Source of the DNA: a virus
Taxonomy: Duplodnaviria > Heunggongvirae > Uroviricota > Caudoviricetes
Virus record (IMG/VR): IMGVR_UViG_2563366822_000009
DNA: 11,226 nucleotides
Direction: 5' to 3' (one strand)
Program-made: the position numbers and the translations under genes
The notes under the pieces: model-generated
Database searches by the model: none
What the model was told of the DNA's origin: nothing
Seen by the model: the letters and a program-made list of their open reading frames with translations, nothing else
Part shown: positions 1 through 11,226 of the stretch, piece after piece
Layout of the letters: each line of letters starts with the position of its first letter
Position numbering within the stretch: position 1 is the first letter of the stretch

Positions 1-147
1 CTCATCACGCAGTTGTTTGACCCATCTTGTCATTGTGGAAAGGCCAACATCCATAGCTTTGGCGGCATCTGCCACCGTGTAGTTCTGGTCAACAACCAGT
101 TGAGCGGATTCGCGTTTAAACTCTGCGCTGAAATTTCTTTTTTTCAT
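1..147 (-). CDS. IS911-like transposase OrfA, N-terminal 49 codons only (partial, truncated by window edge)
   Basis: ATG at 145-147 (complement); in-frame translation to the window edge gives the OrfA N-terminal sequence quoted above. Not listed in the ORF track because it runs off the window. Confidence 0.8.
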
Positions 148-183
148 TGGAGCACCTGTGTTGTTCTGAGGTGAGCATATCAC

Positions 184-219
184 CTCTGTTCAGGTGGCCA
201 AATTCAGTGTGCCACTTCA
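184..219 (-). repeat. Terminal inverted repeat (IRL) of the IS element
   Basis: Reverse complement of 184-219 reads TGAAGTGGCACACTGAATTTGGCCACCTGAACAGAG, lying between the IS terminus and the orfA start as expected for an IS3-family IRL. Confidence 0.6.
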
Positions 220-786
220 AACAGCCACTAAATAGTTGTGCATAGAGAACGACTGGAAAAGGCCGTAGGAACTTACAAATCTCAATTCACGGTAGAGTAT
301 GATATGGGTATTCAATATAAATACAGCCCTCAAAGGTTTAAATATGAACGGAAGTGTTAAAAACAATCTATCGTCAAAAAAGTACAAGCTAAAAGAAAAA
401 TTTTGAATTTGAATCGCGAGCTTTCTAATGGAAAGATCACTCAGGCTGATTATTGTCTATACAAAAAACTGTTTGAAGACTACATTCAGGTATTAACATT
501 TCAACACACAAGAATTTTTGTGGAAAAAGATTTAATAGAACTATCAAATCATCGAAGTGGAGTATTCATTACAACTCAGCATGATACATTAGTAAATAGA
601 CTTGACAAAATTGATTATGAAATTGACAGATTAAAAAACTGTTTAAATAAAAAAATTATCGATTACACAAAATTCACATCCCTATATTAGGATTTTCTAA
701 GAGTACGACACCGTCACATTTAAATATTATTTGTAGAGGTAAAATGACAGCCTGACGGCGGTATTTCATTGCGAAATGCTATTTAA

Positions 787-807
787 AAGACCGCATTGAG
801 CGGTCTT
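787..807 (-). terminator. Candidate Rho-independent terminator downstream of the 484-aa gene
   Basis: Perfect 8-bp stem AAGACCGC (787-794) / GCGGTCTT (800-807) with 5-nt loop. On the minus-strand RNA the stem is followed by UUAAAU, giving a short U run. It lies about 40 bp past the stop codon at 843-845. Confidence 0.4.
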
Positions 808-842
808 ATGTATCTCACAACATATTACAGAATGACTTTAAA

Positions 843-2297
843 CTATTGTTTTAATAACATTTCAAAATCCTCATTCCAGTGCGTGTTTTGTGAAATACGG
901 GTATCAATTTCATCAAGCAGCATATCATGAGAAAGTATGCTTAAAGGGTCATTCCCATTTTTACCAAAACGCATCGTAGTTTCTGCTATTTCCCAATCTT
1001 CTGCGCTGATTGATGGCTGTATTGCATGGCAGTAGATAGCCTTCACATCCTTTTCATGACAGTCAAAATTATTGATGCTTTCTGCAATTTTACGAGCTCT
1101 TTCAATTTCGACAACTGGACCATGTAAAGTTTCATATGATATATGCACAATTGTAGGGGTATTATCTGGAACCTGTCGTACCACTTTGCTTAAGTGCGTT
1201 TTAATATCTTTTGCTTTTTTATTAATCGATTCCTCTGCTATACATTCCCAACGAGCACAGTAACCAGAGTGTATTCCAGTGCAAAAAATGTTAAGTATAT
1301 CAACACCGTCGTCCGGACCTACTCGTACAAGTCCTTTTGGGGCACAAAGATGAGTGTAATTTTCGCTGCTGCTAAAACTTCCGGCCAACAACGAAACCAT
1401 CTGTGGAGAGTTCCATTTAACCATGTATTTATCAAAATGCTCATTGATATTTTTCATATCTATTCTATTAATCAGTATTATAATTTCATCATTTTCTATT
1501 CTCAGTGACTTTCTCGTCGAGATATTAGACTTTATTTCATTGAAGATTTTTGCTAAAATATATTCATCTGTATCTTTTACTTCAACCTTGAAAAGCACGT
1601 CTAAAAATATGTTTTGTCTAGACTGAGTTAGAATAGGTACTAAATTGAGCCATCTTTGCCTCCATTCTCGACGCTCATTTTCAGAATATTCAGTCACTTT
1701 AGATAAACGCTTACATTCCACAAAAAAGCTTTCTTCACCTTTAGTAACTTTTAAATCAGGAGTTTTATTTAATGCTGTTTCTGGAATAAATTCTACTCTA
1801 TAACCATTGCGCGCATACATAATCGCAACAACTAATTCAAACAATGTTGAATCAGGTTGATTTATTTTACCGTTAAGAAATTCCGAAAGTTTTTCATCAA
1901 TCCCAACAATTTTTTTTGCAAGCTCAATATGTCTTCCAACAGCCGCAAAAAAGGGAAATACTCGGGCTGATTGCGCTAACTCGCTAACTAAAGGCCGTTC
2001 ATGTAAGCATTCTACAAGAAAAAGATACCATGCAACCCAATCCTCATGAAATGCCACCCTATTTTTTGGCTCTTCCATACTCTTCATTGCTTGGTCAAAA
2101 TTCTTATAGGTGTTATCTTCCTGTTCTCTGAAGTACTTGACTACATTTTTTTTGCGAGTCTCCCAAGTATCCTTTTCCAGATAAGATAAAAACCAGTCCA
2201 ATGCAATTTTCGTATGATGATGCCAGGGACTGGTATCCGTTGCTGCAAAAATCTCTTGTAGTTCTTTTGAATATTCCAATGTCTGTGTGTTAGCCAT
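843..2297 (-). CDS. Hypothetical protein, 484 aa, in A+T-rich cargo island; PD-(D/E)xK-like motif (E154, D181, E194-C-K196); function unknown
   Basis: Long uninterrupted ORF in A+T-rich DNA. ATG at 2295-2297 is preceded by GAGG with 5-nt spacing; stop TAG at 843-845. Motif codons checked directly: D181 at 1755-1757, E194 at 1716-1718, K196 at 1710-1712. I do not recognise the family. Confidence 0.85.
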   Translation of the reverse strand: MANTQTLEYSKELQEIFAATDTSPWHHHTKIALDWFLSYLEKDTWETRKKNVVKYFREQEDNTYKNFDQAMKSMEEPKNRVAFHEDWVAWYLFLVECLHERPLVSELAQSARVFPFFAAVGRHIELAKKIVGIDEKLSEFLNGKINQPDSTLFELVVAIMYARNGYRVEFIPETALNKTPDLKVTKGEESFFVECKRLSKVTEYSENERREWRQRWLNLVPILTQSRQNIFLDVLFKVEVKDTDEYILAKIFNEIKSNISTRKSLRIENDEIIILINRIDMKNINEHFDKYMVKWNSPQMVSLLAGSFSSSENYTHLCAPKGLVRVGPDDGVDILNIFCTGIHSGYCARWECIAEESINKKAKDIKTHLSKVVRQVPDNTPTIVHISYETLHGPVVEIERARKIAESINNFDCHEKDVKAIYCHAIQPSISAEDWEIAETTMRFGKNGNDPLSILSHDMLLDEIDTRISQNTHWNEDFEMLLKQ

Positions 2298-2668
2298 TTT
2301 GACCTCATCATTGTTAATTTATGAGATTTTACAACTTATAATGCATCTTCCAGATCGAGCCTCCAAGTAAGAAATCAGGCTAAATCAGACAGATATGTAA
2401 TATATCCCTAGTCAATTAGGCAGTCCACCCATAAATCCTAACAGTACGAAAATGGTTGGAACGTTATCCTAGGTTACTGCTCATCGTTTCCTTATGACCT
2501 CAATATATAAATATCCCAGCTCTTGCGGTTCGATTGTATGATTGACAGTCCGCTCCTGGCACAAAGCGGACAACCACGCCAGATCTACCCTGTGCCATGA
2601 AAAATGAGAATGTCAATTCACTCCTGAACTAATGCTTTTTAATCTAGTAACGTCTAAAATACCTAACA

Positions 2669-3070
2669 TTATCCCTGATAAAATGCCAGTATGCGCTGCA
2701 TAACTTCACTCATCCGGCACTCGCGACAGATTATGTTTAGGCGACTGTCGTAGCGACGTATTTCTCCATCAGGTAACGACCAGATAAGGTCCGGATCAAC
2801 CACAGCTGTTTTCTTCACCTTTGCCCTCGATAGTTTTTTGCGGGCGTTTTGCCAGTCCTTACGCGCCTGTTCAGACGGGAATAACCCGTAGCCGGAGTTG
2901 TATACATCGCCACTGGCTACCAGCTCTCTGGCAAGAACGCTCATCAGATATCTAGTCGCACCTGTTTTAGCTTCCAGTTGCCGTAACGTCTCACGACCAC
3001 TCTGGCGCACGAGTTCCACCACCTGCCCTTTAATTTTTTCCCGCTCTTCTTGTGTAAAAACTTTTGCCAC
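2669..3070 (-). CDS. Hypothetical protein, 133 aa, GTG start; possible winged-helix DNA-binding protein
   Basis: ORF with GTG at 3068-3070 preceded by AAGGGGGA; no in-frame ATG until codon 43. The segment TLRQLEAKTGATRYLMSVLARELVASG resembles a helix-turn-helix. Sits where lambda P would be but is too small to be a helicase loader. Confidence 0.55.
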   Translation of the reverse strand: MAKVFTQEEREKIKGQVVELVRQSGRETLRQLEAKTGATRYLMSVLARELVASGDVYNSGYGLFPSEQARKDWQNARKKLSRAKVKKTAVVDPDLIWSLPDGEIRRYDSRLNIICRECRMSEVMQRILAFYQG

Positions 3071-3110
3071 AAGTCCCCCTTAAAATTACCTCATGACCTG
3101 AAATCAAAAC

Positions 3111-4076
3111 TTATCCTCTGAAACCAGGCGGAATTTCTGTATCCGGTTCAGAAATATGATTCACACAACGCTGTACAGGTGAACGTCCCAGGCGGATGAC
3201 CAGTTCGTCCCATTTTTCGCGGAGTTTTGACGGGCTCATGATGTTTTTTACCCAGAATGGATCCCGCTGTACCCGACCAAACATTTCGCAAATTTGTCTG
3301 TGGCTTCTGCCATCCAGCATCCGCATTGTGCGCACGTCATTGGCCCAGGCTGTCCAGTTAGGCTCTTTTGGTCGCATGATCTCTCCATCGTCGCTGGCAG
3401 CCTGTTCGTAAAGGTTCACGATCCGCCCCCAAATCCACTGCGCACACGCCAAATCCTCCCTGCTACCCCACTGGCGTTTTTTCACACTAAACACAACCGC
3501 GTCGGGGTTCCGAGTTAAAAAATCCTGTTCAGTCGTCTGCGGGTCCGGTTGCGAAGCTTCCGGACGAAAAGTGTTTTTATTCTCTGTAGTAATCTCTGTT
3601 GTATTCTCTGTAAGATCATCAGGCCATTTTGACCCGATGACATTGGGTCGTTTTGAACCAATGGAGCGTTTCATTTTGACCTCTTCCATCGTGTCATTTT
3701 GACCTGATGGAGCGGCGCATTTTGAACCGATGGATTCGTTCAATTTGCCACCATCTAAAAGCTCGCTCCCATAGTTGATCGTGTAGAAATTGGTCATATC
3801 GCGCTTTGATTTATTGAGCTTTTCACAACGCAAAAGCCCCAGCGTTTTCAGACTTGCAAACGCGCGCTTTAACGTTGACTCTGACCAGAATGGGAACTGT
3901 TCCAGCCATTGTTCCGTTGTGTTATAAATCCAGCGAACACCATCACATTCCATACCGGAGTTGGTATCTCTCAACCAGTAGTGCAGTTGTTGCAAAACAA
4001 TGGCTTCGTTTAAGCCGATTTTCATTGCCAGCTGCGTGTTTATAACCAGTGGGCGTTCAGCAAAAAGAAGACTCAT
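3111..4076 (-). CDS. Phage replication initiator, lambda O-like, with the replication origin embedded in the coding sequence
   Basis: Start taken at the ATG at 4074-4076; the track ORF begins at a TTG at 4128-4130. The N-terminal region has a winged-helix-like segment (WSESTLKRAFASLKTLGLL). A central low-complexity linker (SIGSK repeats, TENTTEITTEN) coincides with the DNA iterons and A+T-rich repeats. Position is immediately downstream of the cro-like and cII-position genes, as in lambdoid phages. Confidence 0.7.
   Translation of the reverse strand: MSLLFAERPLVINTQLAMKIGLNEAIVLQQLHYWLRDTNSGMECDGVRWIYNTTEQWLEQFPFWSESTLKRAFASLKTLGLLRCEKLNKSKRDMTNFYTINYGSELLDGGKLNESIGSKCAAPSGQNDTMEEVKMKRSIGSKRPNVIGSKWPDDLTENTTEITTENKNTFRPEASQPDPQTTEQDFLTRNPDAVVFSVKKRQWGSREDLACAQWIWGRIVNLYEQAASDDGEIMRPKEPNWTAWANDVRTMRMLDGRSHRQICEMFGRVQRDPFWVKNIMSPSKLREKWDELVIRLGRSPVQRCVNHISEPDTEIPPGFRG
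3578..3613. repeat. A+T-rich tract with three tandem 12-bp repeats (TCTCTGT core) flanking the iterons; candidate DNA-unwinding element
   Basis: TCTCTGT occurs at 3581-3587, 3593-3599 and 3605-3611, preceded by GAAAAGTGTTTTTAT. It lies on the side of the iterons that is downstream in gene orientation, matching the ori-lambda layout of iterons followed by an AT-rich region. Confidence 0.5.
3625..3755. repeat. Origin-of-replication iterons: five to six tandem ~23-bp direct repeats, core CATTTTGACC-GATGGAGCG
   Basis: Repeat units begin at 3625, 3649, 3672, 3695, 3718 and a degenerate sixth at 3741; the TTTTGA core recurs at 3627, 3651, 3674, 3697, 3720. Periodicity is 23-24 bp, inside the O-like CDS. 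Confidence 0.7.
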
Positions 4077-4578
4077 AATTCCATCCAGCTTTTTGTTGGT
4101 ATTGCTGTCGATACGCAAGCTTGAAAGCAATTGCTTTTTCTATAAGTTCGTCAGTTTCACGATCTACAACGGCAGGATCTGCAAAAAGCAGTCCAGATTC
4201 CACCACATCGCCATATTCTTTATTTAACCCGGCGATCATGTACGTAATACTTTTTCCATCACTGATCTCACGATACAACCTGAAATCACTAATCCGGATA
4301 GCCTCCATAATTGCAGGCACTAGCGCTGTGAACTTTTCACGCTTATCCCTGGTGTCGATAGCCTTCCAGCGTTCGAATATCTTCACTCGATTAACGCTAA
4401 GCGCTCGCTGATCAACCGCGCCACCTTCATATGTGACACGCTGAACATCGATGTTCGGGCGCTCTTTCAAAGCCCAGAATGCTTCAGTGATTAATATCGT
4501 CGCCTGCTCCTGTGTCATTCCTGGTCGACATATCCAGGCATCCAGAGCCTCACGAGCCTGTTCAGGAGTGATTTTCAT
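4057..4578 (-). CDS. Hypothetical protein, 173 aa, between the cro-like gene and the replication initiator (cII-position gene; possibly a YdaT-like regulator)
   Basis: ATG at 4576-4578 overlaps the dicC-like stop (4562-4564) by 17 nt, and its stop (4057-4059) overlaps the O-like start by 20 nt, indicating one tightly packed operon. I do not recognise the family with confidence. Confidence 0.7.
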   Translation of the reverse strand: MKITPEQAREALDAWICRPGMTQEQATILITEAFWALKERPNIDVQRVTYEGGAVDQRALSVNRVKIFERWKAIDTRDKREKFTALVPAIMEAIRISDFRLYREISDGKSITYMIAGLNKEYGDVVESGLLFADPAVVDRETDELIEKAIAFKLAYRQQYQQKAGWNYESSFC

Positions 4579-4789
4579 TGTTCAACCGCCCCGCCCGCTT
4601 CGTCTTACGATATTCGTCATAAACTTTGGGATCATACTGAAGCTCCCCGCCAGATGCCTCCTGTAGACGCATCGCGCGACCTTCAGGAACCAGTATCCCC
4701 CAAGCAGCAACACTTGCCAGTCTCACTCCTGCGGCATTGGCAAGCTTTGTTTTGCTGCCAAAAAAAGTAATTGCGTCAACTTTAAGCAT
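4562..4789 (-). CDS. dicC: Cro-type repressor, DicC-like (75 aa)
   Basis: Translation MLKVDAITFFGSKTKLANAAGVRLASVAAWGILVPEGRAMRLQEASGGELQYDPKVYDEY... resembles DicC of the Qin prophage as I remember it. ATG at 4787-4789 is preceded by AGGGGG with 5-nt spacing; the track start is the TTG one codon upstream. Divergent from the dicA-like gene. Confidence 0.8.
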   Translation of the reverse strand: MLKVDAITFFGSKTKLANAAGVRLASVAAWGILVPEGRAMRLQEASGGELQYDPKVYDEYRKTKRAGRLNNENHS

Positions 4790-4802
4790 CAAAGCCCCCT
4801 CT

Positions 4803-4820
4803 TGTTAGATTTTTCTAACA
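4803..4820. promoter_or_regulatory. Operator palindrome TGTTAGA-TTTT-TCTAACA in the dicC/dicA divergent intergenic region
   Basis: Perfect 7-bp inverted arms with 4-bp spacer; the same arms recur at 5314-5331 and degenerately at 5349-5366. Confidence 0.55.
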
Positions 4821-4847
4821 TTATTGTGCGCGGGATACCTAAGTCAA
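4819..4847 (-). promoter_or_regulatory. Putative sigma70 promoter for the dicC-like operon (minus strand)
   Basis: On the minus strand: -35 TTGACT (4842-4847), 16-bp spacer, -10 AATAAT (4820-4825). The predicted transcription start overlaps the operator palindrome. Confidence 0.35.
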
Positions 4848-4869
4848 GAAAAATTAGAATTACCTAACT

Positions 4870-5277
4870 ATGGATACAAGAACCCTAGGCCAGCGAGTTC
4901 TGGCGCGACGAAAAGAATTACGCTTAACACAACGAGAAGCTGCGCGCCTCGCTGGAGTTGCTCACGTCACAATTTCACAATGGGAAAGAGACGAAACCCA
5001 GCCAGTCGGAAAACGATTGTTTGCTTTAGCGGATGCTCTGAAGTGCTCACCTACATGGCTAATGTTTGGTGACGAAGACAAGGCACCAGTGCCTGCACAA
5101 GAACTTCATGTGGAAACAGAGCTAACTCCCAACCACAAAGAATTGATCGAATTATTCGATGCTCTTCCATCTTCCGAGCAGGAAGCCTTGCTGTCTGAAA
5201 TGCGCGCAAGAGTAGAAAACTTCAACAAACTCTTCGAAGAAATGCTTAAAGCGCGTAAAAATAAATCAATAAAATAA
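4870..5277 (+). CDS. dicA: XRE-family HTH repressor, DicA-like (CI-type immunity repressor), 135 aa
   Basis: N-terminal HTH (LTQREAARLAGVAHVTISQWERDETQP) and the C-terminal portion (CSPTWLMFGDEDK...EMRARVENFNKLFEEMLKARK) resemble DicA as I remember it; same length as DicA. ATG at 4870, stop TAA at 5275-5277. Confidence 0.85.
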   Translation: MDTRTLGQRVLARRKELRLTQREAARLAGVAHVTISQWERDETQPVGKRLFALADALKCSPTWLMFGDEDKAPVPAQELHVETELTPNHKELIELFDALPSSEQEALLSEMRARVENFNKLFEEMLKARKNKSIK

Positions 5278-5310
5278 CATTCTTTTCAAGTGATTAGTTG
5301 CGCCCACTCT

Positions 5311-5334
5311 TTTTGTTAGACCAATCTAACAAAA
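5311..5334. promoter_or_regulatory. Operator palindrome TTTTGTTAGA-CCAA-TCTAACAAAA (perfect 10-bp arms)
   Basis: Seen directly at 5311-5334; the core is identical to the 4803-4820 operator. Lies immediately upstream of a candidate -35 element. Confidence 0.55.
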
Positions 5335-5338
5335 ACAC

Positions 5339-5367
5339 TTGCCTCTCATGTTAGGTTATTCTAAATT
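5339..5367 (+). promoter_or_regulatory. Putative promoter of the downstream plus-strand operon (dicB-operon promoter equivalent), overlapped by a third degenerate operator
   Basis: -35 TTGCCT (5339-5344), 17-bp spacer, -10 TAAATT (5362-5367). The degenerate operator TGTTAGG-TTAT-TCTAAAT (5349-5366) covers the spacer and -10. Confidence 0.4.
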
Positions 5368-5444
5368 ACTTTCTATCAAGACACCGCACGGTGTTCTCAG
5401 CAAGCAGTTCCGCTACCCCGGCGTTAAGGGGAAATGAGGTCAGC

Positions 5445-5597
5445 ATGGATACTATCGATCTTGGCAACAGCGAATCTCTGGTATGTGGCGTGTTCCCCAA
5501 CCAAGACGGTACGTTCACCGCGATGACATATACCAAAAGCAAAACGTTTAAAACCGAATCTGGCGCGCGTTGCTGGTTAGCCAGAAACACTGACTGA
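5445..5597 (+). CDS. ydfA: Small protein, 50 aa, YdfA-like (first gene of the dicB-type operon)
   Basis: ATG at 5445-5447 preceded by GAGG with 5-nt spacing; the track ORF starts at an upstream GTG without a ribosome-binding site. Size and position directly downstream of dicA match ydfA of Qin. Stop TGA 5595-5597. Confidence 0.55.
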   Translation: MDTIDLGNSESLVCGVFPNQDGTFTAMTYTKSKTFKTESGARCWLARNTD

Positions 5598-5608
5598 TGA
5601 GGCTGACG

Positions 5609-5974
5609 ATGGAATTTAAAGATTTACCGTCTGATGTACAGAAAACAGCAGCTCATACATTGCATTCTGTGCTGCGAGAAATCGGGAAAGATATTGCAAG
5701 CGAGCCAGCAAAAGATCTGGCCCGGAAAATCAAGACCGCTTTCGTTGAGCTTTATAATGTTGGCACTGACTCTGAAACTGTCGAGACCAAGACCGTAAGT
5801 TCACCAATATTCTCACTTGAGCCAGGCGTATTATCAGGTGAAATATGCACCGAGATTTCCAGCGAACTGCTTCCGGTAATACGAGAAGCAATTTGCCGTC
5901 GCGGTTTGGATGGAAGTTACGATCATGACGTCCTGCAAGTTCTCAGGACAATGGTGACTTCACTGGGGATTTGA
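5609..5974 (+). CDS. Hypothetical protein, 121 aa (dicB-operon-region protein, YdfB/YdfC position)
   Basis: ATG at 5609 preceded by GAGG (5599-5602) with 6-nt spacing. The track start at 5597 overlaps the upstream stop as TGATG but has no ribosome-binding site. Stop TGA 5972-5974. Confidence 0.6.
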   Translation: MEFKDLPSDVQKTAAHTLHSVLREIGKDIASEPAKDLARKIKTAFVELYNVGTDSETVETKTVSSPIFSLEPGVLSGEICTEISSELLPVIREAICRRGLDGSYDHDVLQVLRTMVTSLGI

Positions 5975-6143
5975 TCCCTGCGTCCTCTAACCTTTTGATA
6001 TAGCGGTCCTCCAAGAAGCGGTAAATTTTGTCGAAATCATCTTTCCCCTCTGGTTTATTCAGAGGATTACAGGACCCGTAAGTAGCGGCATACATTTCAA
6101 CCGTTTTATCAAAAATATAAGAGACAAATTCTTCTTTAGTCAT
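5943..6143 (-). CDS. Hypothetical small protein, 66 aa, convergent with and antisense to the dicB-type operon
   Basis: ATG at 6141-6143 (complement) preceded by AAGGA with 7-nt spacing. Its 3' end overlaps the 3' end of the 121-aa gene by 32 bp (5943-5974). Locally more A+T-rich than its neighbours by eye. Confidence 0.5.
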   Translation of the reverse strand: MTKEEFVSYIFDKTVEMYAATYGSCNPLNKPEGKDDFDKIYRFLEDRYIKRLEDAGIKSPVKSPLS

Positions 6144-6222
6144 ATAGATTTCCTTCTTGGTTATTCGGGATAAGAAGGATACCACCTCGCCTGACGTGGT
6201 TAAAAGCAGGCACACAACACGA

Positions 6223-6284
6223 AAGCGCACGGCGAAGTTCGTCTCACTGTACGGTGTCGTTAAATTTAATTCGACCGTGCGCTT
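6223..6284. repeat. Perfect 10-bp inverted repeat AAGCGCACGG / CCGTGCGCTT separated by 42 nt, followed by GGTTG-TGG-CAACC palindrome (6287-6299)
   Basis: Seen directly; located in the non-coding stretch between the 66-aa gene start and the DicF-like sRNA. Confidence 0.5.
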
Positions 6285-6418
6285 CCGGTTGTGGCAACCC
6301 GCGAAATGGCGCGGCGGTAAGTATGGCGGGGTTATTCCTTCCCCGTTGAGGACACCGAGTTGTCAGGTTGACCATACGCTTAAGTGACAACCCCGCTGCA
6401 ACGCCCTCTGTTATCAAT

Positions 6419-6476
6419 TTTCTGGTGACGTTTGGCGGTATCAGTTTTACTCCGTGACTGCTCTGCCGCCGTTTTT
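6419..6476 (+). ncRNA. dicF: DicF-like small RNA (ftsZ-targeting antisense sRNA of Qin-type prophages) with intrinsic terminator
   Basis: Sequence TTTCTGGTGACGTTTGGCGGTATCAGTTTTACTCCGTGACTGCTCTGCCGCC followed by GTTTTT matches my memory of the roughly 53-nt DicF RNA. GGCGG (6434-6438) / CCGCC (6466-6470) stem followed by a T5 run. Lies about 175 bp upstream of dicB. Confidence 0.6.
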
Positions 6477-6645
6477 AAAGTGAATTTTGTGATGCGGTGA
6501 ATGCGGCTAAGCACACGCGGAACAGTTAAAACCAAAAACAGTGTTATGGGTGGATTCTCTGTATCCGGCGTTAATTGTTAACTGGTTAACGTCACCTGGA
6601 GGCACCAGGCACTGCATCACAAAATTCATTGTTGAGGACGCGATA

Positions 6646-6834
6646 ATGAAAACGTTATTACCAAACGTTAATACGTCTGAAGGTTGTTTTGAAATTGGTG
6701 TCACTATCAGTAACCCTGTATTTACTGAAGATGCCATTAACAAGAGAAAACAAGAACGGGAGCTATTAAATAAAATATGCATTGTTTCAATGCTGGCTCG
6801 TTTACGTCTGATGCCAAAAGGATGTGCACAATGA
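6646..6834 (+). CDS. dicB: Cell-division inhibitor DicB, 62 aa
   Basis: Translation MKTLLPNVNTSEGCFEIGVTISNPVFTEDAINKRKQERELLNKICIVSMLARLRLMPKGCAQ matches my memory of DicB. ATG at 6646 preceded by GAGGA with 7-nt spacing; the track ORF begins further upstream at an unsupported start. Confidence 0.8.
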   Translation: MKTLLPNVNTSEGCFEIGVTISNPVFTEDAINKRKQERELLNKICIVSMLARLRLMPKGCAQ

Positions 6835-7022
6835 ATTCAGCATTTGCGCTTGTTCTGACAGTTTTTCTTGTTTCCGGAGAGCCAGTTGATATTGCAGTCA
6901 GTGTTCACAGGACAATGCAGGAGTGTATGACTGCAGCAACCGAACAGAAAATTCCCGGTAACTGTTACCCGGTCGATAAAGTTATTCACCAGGATAATAT
7001 CGAAATCCCGGCAGGTCTTTAA
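6831..7022 (+). CDS. ydfD: YdfD-like small protein, 63 aa, with hydrophobic N-terminus
   Basis: ATG 6831-6833 overlaps the dicB stop TGA 6832-6834 (ATGA). The N-terminus MNSAFALVLTVFLVSG is hydrophobic. Position after dicB matches ydfD of Qin. Confidence 0.7.
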   Translation: MNSAFALVLTVFLVSGEPVDIAVSVHRTMQECMTAATEQKIPGNCYPVDKVIHQDNIEIPAGL

Positions 7023-7115
7023 AACAGTTCCGTAATAAATATCCGGTTTCATTCTTATATGCCAGCAATGGCAGGGATTTGTTCATCCTTAAATCTGTCA
7101 TGAGGTTAAAACAAA

Positions 7116-9587
7116 ATGAGTAAAGTCTTTATTTGCGCCGCTATTCCTGACGAACTGGCAACAAGGGAAGAAGGCGCTGTGGCTGTAGCCACAGCCATTG
7201 AAGCTGGCGACGAACGCCGTGCTCGAGCAAAATTTCACTGGCAGTTCCTGGAACATTATCCGGCTGCTCAGGACTGCGCTTATAAATTTATTGTCTGCGA
7301 GGATAAACCTGGCATACCCCGCCCTGCCCTCGATTCATGGGATGCTGAATATATGCAGGAAAACCGCTGGGATGAGGAGTCTGCTTCTTTTGTCCCGGTT
7401 GAGACTGAATCCGATCCGATGAACGTCACTTTTGACAAGCTGGCCCCTGAAGTACAGAACGCTGTCATGGTTAAGTTCGACACATGTGAAAACATCACCG
7501 TTGATATGGTTATTAGCGCACAGGAATTGTTGCAGGAAGACATGGCAACATTCGACGGACATATCGTTGAAGCGTTGATGAAAATGCCAGAAGTTAACGC
7601 CATGTATCCGGAGCTTAAGTTGCACGCCATTGGGTGGGTTAAGCATAAATGTATTCCTGGTGCTAAATGGCCCGAAATTCAGGCAGAGATGCGCATCTGG
7701 AAAAAACGTCGCGAAGGTGAACGCAAGGAAACCGGAAAATACACGTCTGTTGTTGATCTCGCCCGCGCCAGAGCCAATCAACAGTACACTGAAAATTCAA
7801 CAGGAAAAATCAGCCCGGTCATTGCTGCCATTCATCGCGAATACAAGCAGACATGGAAAACACTGGATGACGAACTGGCCTACGCTCTCTGGCCTGGTGA
7901 TGTGGATGCCGGAAACATTGACGGCAGCATCCATCGCTGGGCAAAAAAAGAAGTTATCGACAACGACCGCGAAGACTGGAAGCGTATCTCGGCATCAATG
8001 CGCAAACAGCCTGATGCCCTTCGCTACGACCGCCAAACTATTTTTGGCCTTGTCCGTGAGCGTCCGATCGACATTCACAAAGATCCCGTAGCACTGAACA
8101 AATATATCTGCGAATACCTGACGACAAAGGGCGTGTTTGAGAATGAAGAAACAGACCTGGGCACTGTTGATGTTCTCCAGTCATCAGAAACACAAACTGA
8201 TGCAGTGGAAACTGAGGTATCTGATATCCCAAAAAATGAAACCGCGCCGGAAGCTGAACCATCTGTAGAGCGTGAGGGGCCGTTCTATTTCCTCTTCGCA
8301 GGTAAGGACGGAGAAAAATACGGTCGCGCAAACAAACTTTCTGGTCTGGATAAGGCACTGGCTGCTGGCGCCACTGAAATCACAAAAGAAGAATATTTTG
8401 CCCGAAAAAATGGCACATACACGGGCTTACCGCAAAATGTTGATACCGCTGAAAAGACCGAACAACCAGAGCCGATAAAAGTTACCGCTGACGAAGTAAA
8501 CAAAATTATGCAGGCAGCCAATATCAGCCAGCCTGACGCCGATAAGTTGCTTGCTGCATCACGTGGTGAATTTGTTGAAGGGATTAGTGCCCCGAATGAT
8601 CCGAAATGGGTTAAGGGGATCCAGACCCGCGATTCTATGAACCAGAACCAGCATGAATCGGAACGGAACTACCAAAAAGCGGAACAAAACAGCCCAAATG
8701 CGTTACAAAACGAGCCAGAAACGAAACAGCCTGAACCAATGGCGCAACAGGAAGTGGAAAAAGTCTGCACCGCCTGCGGTCAGACCGGCGGCGGCAACTG
8801 CCCTGATTGTGGCGCGGTGATGGGCGACGCAACATACCAAGAAACATTCGATGAAGAGTATCAGGTTGAAGTTCAGGAAGATGATCCGGAGGAAATGGAA
8901 GGCGCTGAACATCCACACAAGGAGAACACTGGCGGCAATCAGCATCACAATAGCGATAATGAAACTGGCGAGACGGCAGATCACTCAATTAAGGTGAACG
9001 GTCATCACGAAATCACATCCACCAGCAGGACGTGTGACCATCTAATGATCGACCTTGAAACCATGGGAAAAAATCCTGATGCCCCGATCATCTCAATAGG
9101 TGCAATATTTTTCGATCCGCAAACCGGAGATATGGGACCGGAATTTAGTAAGACTATCGATCTGGAAACTGCTGGCGGAGTCATTGATCGGGACACCATT
9201 AAATGGTGGCTTAAGCAATCACGCGAAGCGCAATCTGCCATTATGACCGATGAAATCCCGTTAGATGATGCACTGTTACAATTGCGGGAATTTATCGACG
9301 AAAACTCCGGTGAATTTTTTGTTCAGGTTTGGGGAAATGGAGCCAACTTCGACAACACGATTTTGCGCCGTTCATACGAACGGCAGGGGATCCCCTGCCC
9401 GTGGCGTTACTACAACGATCGCGATGTACGCACAATCGTTGAGCTGGGGAAAGCCATAGATTTCGATGCCAGAACGGCTATTCCATTCGAAGGTGAGCGC
9501 CATAATGCACTTGATGACGCCCGTTACCAGGCAAAATACGTTTCAGTTATCTGGCAAAAACTGATCCCGAGTCAGGCTGATTCTTAA
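7116..9587 (+). CDS. Large prophage protein, 823 aa, with C-terminal DnaQ-like DEDDh 3'-5' exonuclease domain; resembles the family annotated exodeoxyribonuclease VIII / YdfE-like in E. coli prophages
   Basis: ATG at 7116, stop TAA 9585-9587. C-terminal motifs seen directly: Exo I MIDLETMG (D646, E648; codon 9051), Exo [10 protein letters not shown] (D746; codon 9351), Exo III HNALDDA (H796, D801; codon 9501). Acidic low-complexity linker with C-x2-C-x7-C-x2-C zinc ribbon at 8766-8810. Segment [31 protein letters not shown] resembles a RecE segment as I recall it. Confidence 0.9.
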
Positions 9588-9598
9588 TGTTCAACTGT

Positions 9599-9630
9599 CG
9601 CCGGTTGTGACTGGTATTCTGCAACCGGCG
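9599..9630. other. Hairpin (9-bp perfect stem CGCCGGTTG / CAACCGGCG, 14-nt loop) between the exonuclease gene and xis
   Basis: Seen directly. No T-run follows on either strand, so it is not a canonical intrinsic terminator. Confidence 0.4.
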
Positions 9631-9659
9631 CTCGTCTGATGTAAGAGATAAAGAAATCG

Positions 9660-9911
9660 ATGAGCGAAGTAATCATGATTGTCTCTCCCGGCAAATGGGT
9701 ATCCGAAGAGCAGTTAATTGCGCTGAAAGGAATAAAAAAAGGTACGTTAAAAAAGGCCCGGGAAAAATCGTTTATGGAAGGAAGGGAATATAAGCATGTC
9801 GCTCATGACGGTATGCCATGGGATAACAGTCCATGCTTTTACAACCTGGAAGAAATTGATCGCTGGATTGAGCGCCAGGCATCAGCGAGACCAAGACGTC
9901 ATCTTACTTGA
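9660..9911 (+). CDS. xis: Excisionase, lambda Xis-like (83 aa; alternative start at 9675)
   Basis: Small basic protein immediately upstream of and co-oriented with the integrase. The central GREY segment resembles lambda Xis (KDGREYLFHESA). Stop TGA 9909-9911. Confidence 0.7.
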   Translation: MSEVIMIVSPGKWVSEEQLIALKGIKKGTLKKAREKSFMEGREYKHVAHDGMPWDNSPCFYNLEEIDRWIERQASARPRRHLT

Positions 9912-9945
9912 CTAAAAGCCACACTAACTAATGAGAGAAGTTGAA

Positions 9946-11226
9946 ATGAAATATCCGACAGGCGTGGAAAACCATGGAGGGAAATTACGTATCTGGTTTG
10001 TTTATAAAGGCGTAAGAGTCAGGGAAAATCTGGGGGTTCCTGACACAGCAAAAAACAGGCGCGTTGCAGGTGAACTACGCGCCTCTGTTTGTTACGCAAT
10101 AAAAACTGGTGTTTTCGACTATGCAAAACAGTTTCCCTCCTCACGCAATCTGGAAAAATTTGGTGAGGCCCGACAAGATTTAACCATAAAAGAACTGGCT
10201 GAAAAATTTCTGGCACTGAAAGAAACTGAAGTCGCCAAAACATCACTCAACACATACCGTGCCGTCATCAAAAATATCCTGAGCATAATCGGTGAAAAAA
10301 ATCTTGCCTCATCGATTAATAAAGAAAAATTACTGGAGGTTCGTAAAGAGCTACTGACTGGATACCAGATCCCTAAAAGTAACTATATTGTTACACAACC
10401 AGGGAGATCGGCTGTAACTGTAAATAATTACATGACAAATCTTAACGCCGTGTTCCAGTTTGGTGTTGATAACGGTTACCTGGCAGATAATCCGTTTAAG
10501 GGGATCTCGCCATTAAAGGAATCAAGAACCATTCCGGATCCTCTTTCGCGGGAGGAATTTATCCGTCTTATCGATGCGTGCAGAAATCAGCAAGCAAAAA
10601 ATTTATGGTGTGTTTCTGTTTATACTGGCGTTCGCCCTGGTGAGCTGTGTGCACTTGGATGGGAGGACATAGATCTGAAAAATGGAACAATGATGATCAG
10701 GAGAAATTTAGCAAAAGACCGTTTCACGGTACCAAAAACACAGGCGGGAACCAATCGGGTCATTCATCTTATTAAGCCAGCAATCGACGCTCTCCGGAGT
10801 CAGATGACATTAACGAGACTGAGCAAAGAGCATATCATTGATGTTCACCTCAGAGAGTATGGCAGAACAGAAAAACAAAAATGCACCTTTGTTTTTCAAC
10901 CTGAAGTGTCAGCGAGAGTAAAAAATTATGGTGACCATTTTACCGTTGACTCAATAAGGCAGATGTGGGACGCAGCGATAAAACGAGCCGGACTCCGCCA
11001 TCGAAAATCATATCAGTCGAGACATACTTATGCCTGCTGGTCGCTGACAGCTGGTGCTAACCCGGCATTTATAGCAAACCAGATGGGCCATGCAGATGCG
11101 CAAATGGTATTTCAGGTATACGGAAAATGGATGTCTGAAAACAATAATGCACAGGTAGCTTTGTTAAATACACAGTTAAGTGAGTTTGCCCCAACCATGC
11201 CCCATAACGAAGCAATGAAAAATTAA
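9946..11226 (+). CDS. int: Tyrosine-type site-specific integrase (phage integrase family), 426 aa from the ATG at 9946; track start 9931
   Basis: N-terminal arm-binding-like region (YPTGVENHGGKLRIWFVYKGVRVRENLG), then conserved catalytic-region elements: TGVRPGELCALGWEDID, SRHTYA, and C-terminal VFQVYGKWM with the candidate catalytic Tyr. ATG 9946 is preceded by GAGAGAAG with 5-nt spacing. Stop TAA 11224-11226 is the end of the window. Confidence 0.9.
   Translation: MKYPTGVENHGGKLRIWFVYKGVRVRENLGVPDTAKNRRVAGELRASVCYAIKTGVFDYAKQFPSSRNLEKFGEARQDLTIKELAEKFLALKETEVAKTSLNTYRAVIKNILSIIGEKNLASSINKEKLLEVRKELLTGYQIPKSNYIVTQPGRSAVTVNNYMTNLNAVFQFGVDNGYLADNPFKGISPLKESRTIPDPLSREEFIRLIDACRNQQAKNLWCVSVYTGVRPGELCALGWEDIDLKNGTMMIRRNLAKDRFTVPKTQAGTNRVIHLIKPAIDALRSQMTLTRLSKEHIIDVHLREYGRTEKQKCTFVFQPEVSARVKNYGDHFTVDSIRQMWDAAIKRAGLRHRKSYQSRHTYACWSLTAGANPAFIANQMGHADAQMVFQVYGKWMSENNNAQVALLNTQLSEFAPTMPHNEAMKN

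Follow-up and report, generated by a model that had tools for sequence, protein, structure and literature searches.

The dicF-dicB-ydfD module and the adjoining exonuclease, xis and int genes of a probable Qin/Tritos-type prophage remnant

Results

A probable early leftward operon at the Qin attachment site

The DNA analyzed here (the window) is a stretch of 11,226 bases, given as one strand. With a probability of about 85%, it represents the early leftward (PL-like) operon of a lambdoid prophage of the Qin/Tritos type that occupies the chromosomal site of the Qin prophage of Escherichia coli K-12 (ynfP/rspB), most likely as a remnant of approximately 11 kb. The features that we assigned are compiled in Table 1. 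Judged by sequence identity and family matches, every element of the dicF-dicB-ydfD module is intact. The three genes that follow, coding for a protein of 823 amino acids, an excisionase and an integrase, are all open and full length, and the claim of an earlier reading made from the sequence alone (the sequence-only reading) that this region is uninterrupted thus holds.

Table 1. Features of the 11,226-nt window, with their positions, strands and the evidence used for their assignment
Feature	Position	Strand	Evidence
Left end of IS911-type (IS3-family) insertion sequence	1..219	-	HTH_Tnp_1 PF01527; terminal repeat
Hypothetical 484-aa gene, context outside the module	843..2297	-	phrog_37220, E 4.2e-51
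DicC-type Cro-like regulator, 75 aa	4562..4789	-	NF007282, 165.7 bits (cutoff 130); P22_Cro
DicA-family repressor, 135 aa	4870..5277	+	NF007257, 224.7 bits (cutoff 101); Pfam HTH_3
Putative dicBp-equivalent promoter	5339..5367	+	Alignment to K-12 dicBp
ydfA homologue, DUF1391, 50 aa, operon gene 1	5445..5597	+	PF07151, E 4.3e-27
Hypothetical 121-aa gene, variable cassette	5609..5974	+	phrog_33007, E 1.3e-82
Hypothetical convergent 66-aa gene inside the operon	5943..6143	-	phrog_34441, E 1.5e-50; annotated in EC93
5' part of the equivalent of the 190-nt DicF precursor	6282..6418	+	K-12 alignment
DicF sRNA and intrinsic terminator	6419..6471	+	Rfam RF00039; K-12 alignment
dicB, 62 aa	6646..6834	+	PF05358; NF049927
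ydfD, 63 aa, DUF1482	6831..7022	+	PF07358
YdfE-type protein, 823 aa, C-terminal DEDDh 3'-5' exonuclease domain	7116..9587	+	PF16473; phrog_2082; YdfE_N + YdfE_C
Excisionase (xis), 83 aa	9660..9911	+	PF06806
Tyrosine integrase (int), 426 aa	9946..11226	+	PF12167 (Arm-DNA-bind_2) + PF00589

The DicF small RNA

DicF was the sole match to the Rfam collection across the whole window. The RF00039 (DicF) model aligns with positions 6420-6471 of the plus strand over its entire length (52/52 positions) and scores 72.5 bits against a gathering score of 48 (E = 8.5e-15). The 53-nt dicF annotation of K-12 corresponds to window positions 6419-6471; when the two are aligned, positions 1-52 are identical and the last base differs, a C in K-12 being replaced by a G in the window. 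This base is unpaired in the Rfam structure and directly precedes a run of T residues. A terminator can be read from the sequence as a GGCGG...CCGCC stem followed by TTTTT. In K-12, DicF is processed by RNase III into a 190-nt form and by RNase E into the 53-nt form (PMC10448788, PMC5069750), and the terminator of DicF itself determines where the RNA ends (PMC10448788). The window's equivalent of the 190-nt precursor region contains one mismatch to K-12. Since the fold of this region was unremarkable (z-score of -1.49), we limit our structural claim to the DicF structure described by Rfam. DicF is located upstream of dicB, at a distance of 174 nt from the dicB start.

DicB, YdfD and the overlap of their genes

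The DicB protein is identical to that of K-12, and its gene differs by one synonymous base change. It matches PF05358 with an E value of 1.9e-40 (136.8 bits; cutoff 27) and NF049927 with 132.8 bits (cutoff 100), with 62/62 residues covered. A GAGGA Shine-Dalgarno sequence is present 9 nt upstream of the ATG. The dicB frame can be lengthened to 97 aa (6541-6834) from a GTG codon at 6541, and this longer open reading frame is annotated in the record of phage HannyBb. The 97-aa form is probably an annotation artefact, since the 62-aa form starting from the ATG at 6646 fits the K-12 protein, the full Pfam model and the GAGGA sequence.

YdfD matches PF07358 (E = 2.1e-26; 92 bits, cutoff 25) and departs from its K-12 counterpart by one substitution, V6A. 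The stop codon of dicB and the start codon of ydfD share the tetranucleotide ATGA at 6831-6834 (ATG, 6831-6833; TGA, 6832-6834), exactly as had been described from the sequence. Translational coupling of the two genes is plausible in view of this 4-nt overlap. An identical overlap is found in K-12 and the overlap therefore adds nothing new. Alignment of the module with K-12 revealed no inactivating change, in agreement with the initial description of dicF, dicB and ydfD as intact.

The exonuclease, xis and int genes

A spacer of 93 nt separates ydfD from the gene for the 823-aa protein. The C-terminal part of this protein (residues 642-813) matches PF16473 (Rv2179c-like) with an E value of 2.3e-67 (226.5 bits; cutoff 27), and it contains the DEDDh motifs DLET at residue 646, NFD at residue 744 and HNALDD at residue 796; phrog_2082 matches the protein from end to end. 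Some phage records label this gene as "exodeoxyribonuclease VIII / RecE". We rejected this label, both on the score obtained with NF007259 (only 282 bits against a cutoff of 1269) and on the type of the catalytic domain, which is that of a DEDDh Rv2179c-like 3'-5' exonuclease. A search with PADLOC returned no defence-system match for the exonuclease, the genes of the variable cassette or a 95-aa open reading frame further to the left.

The xis gene is located directly upstream of int, and its product covers positions 1-69 of the 70 positions of PF06806 (E = 1.6e-31; 108.1 bits, cutoff 22). A longer version of the int open reading frame begins at 9931. The catalytic residues of Int, which we placed by alignment to the solved Tn1549 integrase and six relatives, are present as R230, K264, R359, H382 and Y392. 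At the position of the first catalytic histidine, Int carries a tyrosine (Tyr356).

It is in this context that decay of the module has to be considered, i.e., the possibility of a loss of activity of DicF, DicB, YdfD or Int in spite of open reading frames. Besides the tyrosine in Int, the differences from K-12 in residue 6 of YdfD and in the last base of DicF could be taken to point in this direction. Tyr356 is, however, invariant in all seven aligned family members, among them the integrases of mEp460_ev081, HannyBb and the two Stx phages VT1-Sakai and BP-4795. This tyrosine characterizes the family and is not a lesion, and since functional phages are among its carriers, we dismiss a catalytically dead integrase. 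DicF (its 3' G included), DicB, YdfD (A6 included) and Xis of the living phage Tritos are 100% identical to those encoded in the window, and Int differs from the Tritos integrase at two residues, both of them non-catalytic. Together with the identity of DicB to its K-12 counterpart and the full length of all genes relative to their family profiles, these data make a decayed module highly improbable. Inactivating changes in the module and a dead integrase were the two findings that the sequence-only reading had named as speaking against it; we looked for both and found neither.

The attachment site

Since the window stops at the int stop codon, it contains no att junction, and the junction that had been proposed for an excision experiment lies outside of it; the att core is found about 39-53 bp past the window end. 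The sequence 3' of the int stop codon is almost identical to that of K-12 through the core and into rspB. The linear genome of phage HannyBb matches both ends of K-12 Qin, and the two matches overlap by about 15 bp: GAAATCCATAA(A)TTCA. The free HannyBb genome is thus the exact product of an excision event at the Qin att site, and the int/xis/att system therefore works in close relatives.

Upstream control region and variable cassette

The repressor encoded at 4870-5277 diverges from DicA of K-12 over most of its length, and blastn detects similarity in parts of the gene only. The putative promoter downstream of it consists of the hexamers TTGCCT and TAAATT separated by 17 nt; the aligned dicBp promoter of K-12 reads TTGACC, 17 nt, TAATCT. 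This element, which we placed by the alignment to K-12 only, may act as a dicBp-like promoter if the function known from K-12 (PMC10448788) carries over. A simple consensus scan for promoters and terminators of the region 4700-7200 yielded no more sites than were found in shuffled sequence, and it missed both the dicBp equivalent and the DicF terminator. An operator-like palindrome (TTGTTAG...CTAACAA) is situated just upstream of the dicBp-like promoter. Palindromes of this kind occur in both intergenic regions (4780-5370) and resemble those of K-12 despite the divergent repressor.

While ydfA is conserved relative to K-12, the ydfB and ydfC genes of K-12 are replaced by a cassette at 5589-6174, over which blastn detected no homology to K-12 or HannyBb. 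Between ydfA and the DicF precursor, K-12 (ydfB/ydfC), HannyBb and the window each have a mosaic segment of their own. Within the cassette, the 66-aa gene overlaps the 3' end of the 121-aa gene by 32 nt and is preceded by a good Shine-Dalgarno sequence (AAGGAA).

Comparison with the Qin prophage of K-12

As the K-12 reference, we aligned positions 1630000-1656000 of the MG1655 genome to the window. Homology extends from 6202 to 7882, ends at a remnant of IS2E, and restarts at 10067 inside intQ; K-12 therefore lacks window positions 7883-10066. Missing in K-12 are the C-terminal two-thirds of the exonuclease gene, xis and the first 41 codons of int, in place of which the IS2 remnant is found. 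The operon of MG1655 reads dicA, dicC, ydfABC, dicF, dicB, ydfD, ydfE', IS2E and intQ', and the earlier portrayal of the K-12 locus with a truncated ydfE, an insertion sequence and a defective integrase was right. Shared between the two elements are the chromosomal insertion site, the right junction, the DicA/DicC-type regulators and the aligned promoter. K-12 Qin retains rem, hokD and lysis genes, whereas the copy in the window appears to have lost them.

Occurrence of the module in E. coli genomes and phages

Among 5426 complete E. coli genomes, 2256 (about 42%) contain the stretch from dicF to int in one place with at least 80% coverage, and 3778 contain the dicF-dicB-ydfD stretch at the same coverage. 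The intact dicF-to-int arrangement is common in E. coli, and K-12 Qin is the degraded exception; the uninterrupted arrangement, to which the sequence-only reading had drawn attention, is not unusual.

The whole dicF-to-int stretch is also present, with 95-99.5% identity, in four deposited phage genomes of the phage collection that we searched: Escherichia phage HannyBb (PP925841; 99.5% identity), PhiR42_1 (PV340562; 99.3%), Tritos (LF82 prophage 3, OV696610; 99.2%) and mEp460_ev081 (LR597641; 95.1%). These are complete genomes of 45-49 kb with head, tail and lysis genes, whereas the copy in the window is truncated at IS911, and the window deviates from them in parts of the immunity and replication regions. 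The Tritos record annotates, in this order, "DicF antisense sRNA", "Division inhibition protein dicB", "ydfD", an exonuclease, an excisionase and an integrase. Tritos is spontaneously induced from LF82, forms virions that were seen by electron microscopy, and plaques on MG1655 hsdR- (PMC9928086). A survey from 2016 had found no match to DicB or DicF in about 2,000 phage genomes, and it was argued that defective prophages are the only place in which the operon survives (PMC5069750); since newer phage records carry the module, this statement is outdated.

A Qin-like prophage of E. coli EC93 (NZ_CP061329.1) and the genomes of eight further completely sequenced strains share 99.4-99.9% identity with the window over positions 220-11226, at the site beside rspB. 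EC93 is the closest complete genome (99.9% over 220-11226), with homology beginning at 220; IS911 at window position 219/220 is found in none of the nine. On the left side, the EC93 prophage continues with hokD, rem, ydfU, lysis genes, terminase, portal, capsid and tail genes, and ydfJ. Within its tail region (positions 3264-5439 of our locus L001), the annotation lists gpG and the genes for a tail tube protein, gpU and another tail protein as frameshifted or partial. The full-length prophage of EC93 may itself be defective, or its assembly may contain homopolymer errors.

Small inhibitors of host cell division are also known from phage lambda (Kil) and the Rac prophage (KilR), where their genes stand in the early leftward operon, flanked by the immunity region and the exo/xis/int genes. 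Their sequences are unrelated to DicB, and their loci are devoid of a DicF-type small RNA; in our DNA comparisons, Rac-type loci gave only weak partial matches.

The left end and the state of this prophage copy

The window corresponds to a segment of scaffold KB732916.1 of the assembly GCA_000351925.1 (positions 2886-14111 of our locus L010), with 100% identity over the 11226 bases; this scaffold was located through an exact match of the exonuclease protein. Its left end is formed by an IS911-type element, the terminal repeat of which ends at position 219 (TGAAGTGG on the minus strand). The orfA gene of this element, also on the minus strand, begins at 147 and continues past the first base of the window; on the source scaffold, a 50-aa product is encoded at L010 2884-3032. 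Among complete E. coli genomes, no match was found to positions 1-219 joined with the remaining window, nor did an exact-match scan of species-representative genomes detect the IS911/prophage junction. To the left of the window, the source scaffold contains a gap of 395 Ns. The approximately 9 kb beyond this gap hold a truncated vgrG gene, a split rhs core, rhs-associated open reading frames and a fragment of an H-repeat-type transposase, and are free of phage late genes; on the corresponding side of EC93, no vgrG gene is present within 35 kb. On the right side, int is followed by the junction that also forms the right end of K-12 Qin and then by ynfP/rspB. Of the features by which we would recognize a complete prophage, namely two flanking att junctions and late genes, only the int-side junction was found, with the evidence on the left side reaching across the scaffold gap.

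From these findings, we consider it probable that the copy is a right-arm remnant of about 11 kb, which extends from the 484-aa gene to int and the right junction and has lost the late genes, the antirepressor gene rem and attL. An IS911-associated deletion or rearrangement that removed the late arm is the most economical reading. Alternatively, the source strain might harbor a complete, inducible and excisable Tritos-like prophage, into which IS911 was simply inserted or whose left side was wrongly joined during scaffolding. The region from the 484-aa gene to int is intact throughout and 99.9% identical to that of EC93, as are Int, Xis and the right att junction intact, and near-identical modules are carried by phages that excise and form plaques; moreover, a scaffold gap flanked by two repeat families coincides with the left junction. 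Since the join crosses this gap, and since IS911 and vgrG are both repeats, a scaffolding misjoin may have occurred at the IS911/vgrG join, and the estimated gap of 395 nt would not suffice for what is missing from a full IS911. However, the roughly 9 kb past the gap contain vgrG, rhs and H-repeat genes and not a single prophage gene, and 395 Ns are too few to accommodate the missing arm, which in EC93 runs for more than 30 kb to ydfJ. Likewise, independent short-read contigs with the 484-aa gene stop about 650 nt past this gene, approximately at the IS boundary, and no copy of the att core other than that at the right junction was found in the 22-kb loci. We therefore regard a complete prophage as unlikely.

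Under the remnant reading, the description of the element as a non-degraded relative of Qin applies to the module and the int/xis arm but not to the left side, which is cut by IS911 and followed by vgrG and rhs genes. Similarly, the proposed excisability is borne out for the Int/Xis/att system of close relatives; excision of the copy in the window by Int and Xis is unlikely, since only the int-side junction is in place.

A second IS3-family element, flanked by a 4-bp target duplication, is inserted in rspB about 390 bp past the right end of the window (L010 14498-15754). The rspA gene of the source genome is called as two fragments, and the neighbourhood of the remnant is rich in insertion sequences.

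Discussion

Proposed mode of action

We infer the functions of the elements found here from work conducted with K-12 (PMC10448788, PMC5069750, PMC6832061). In the resulting scheme, the DicA-family repressor and the DicC-type Cro protein, whose genes flank operator-like palindromes, would control the dicBp-like promoter at about 5339-5367, which the repressor would keep off. Upon derepression, a transcript would be made that comprises ydfA, the variable cassette, dicF, dicB, ydfD, the exonuclease gene, xis and int, and from which DicF would be cut out as in K-12. DicF would base-pair with the ftsZ, xylR and pykA mRNAs and lead to their repression, while DicB would redirect MinC so that Z-ring formation is blocked, and YdfD would serve as a lysis protein, the function described for it in K-12 (PMC10448788, PMC6832061). 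DicB of K-12 also lowers infection by phages requiring inner-membrane receptor proteins (PMC10448788, PMC5069750, PMC6832061). The copy would accordingly behave much like K-12 Qin, as a cryptic prophage with a toxic dicBF operon under repression, with the difference that exonuclease, xis and int are intact. The convergent 66-aa gene, which is absent from K-12 and lies between the dicBp-like promoter and dicF, may affect read-through into dicF and dicB and counts against such a simple operon account.

The module in living phages and in the remnant

Public records, namely the annotation of Tritos and thousands of E. coli genomes, already document the module, the order of its genes and its occurrence in a functional phage. 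The present analysis thus carries little weight as a discovery, and we see two modest but useful points in it. One is the position of K-12 as the exception. The other is that a locally intact int/xis arm is no evidence of a complete prophage, as in the present case the opposite end is cut by an insertion sequence.

We tentatively suggest that DicF, DicB and YdfD could be working early-operon functions of living temperate phages of the Tritos/mEp460 type and not primarily domesticated genes of dead prophages. The window might then represent an intermediate stage of domestication, in which the late arm, attL and Rem are gone, and dicBF, the repressor and the exonuclease, xis and int genes are kept. 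If this were true, Int and Xis of the remnant could serve related prophages at the same att site in trans, and derepression of dicBF would no longer answer to Rem. Should rem truly be lost, the derepression route through Rem known from K-12 would be unavailable in the source strain. Isolated phages and about 42% of the complete E. coli genomes have the dicF-to-int stretch in intact form, so that a living phage such as Tritos could be used to study what dicBF does in nature.

An AT-rich cargo block next to IS911

Positions 220-2500 of the window form an AT-rich cargo block (32-37% GC) that holds the 484-aa gene and the 95-aa open reading frame (403-690, plus strand) and sits in the slot that is taken by relBE/flxA in K-12 Qin. 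Sequence searches with the 484-aa protein gave no match in Pfam, NCBIfam or PDB, and PADLOC returned only an insignificant match to GajB (E = 0.0024). By eye, a PD...(E)CK-like motif can be discerned in it ("TPDLKV...FVECKRL"), and we may be dealing with a moron or defence gene of the nuclease type, as yet uncharacterised. In strain JNE21-003, the 484-aa gene is split in two.
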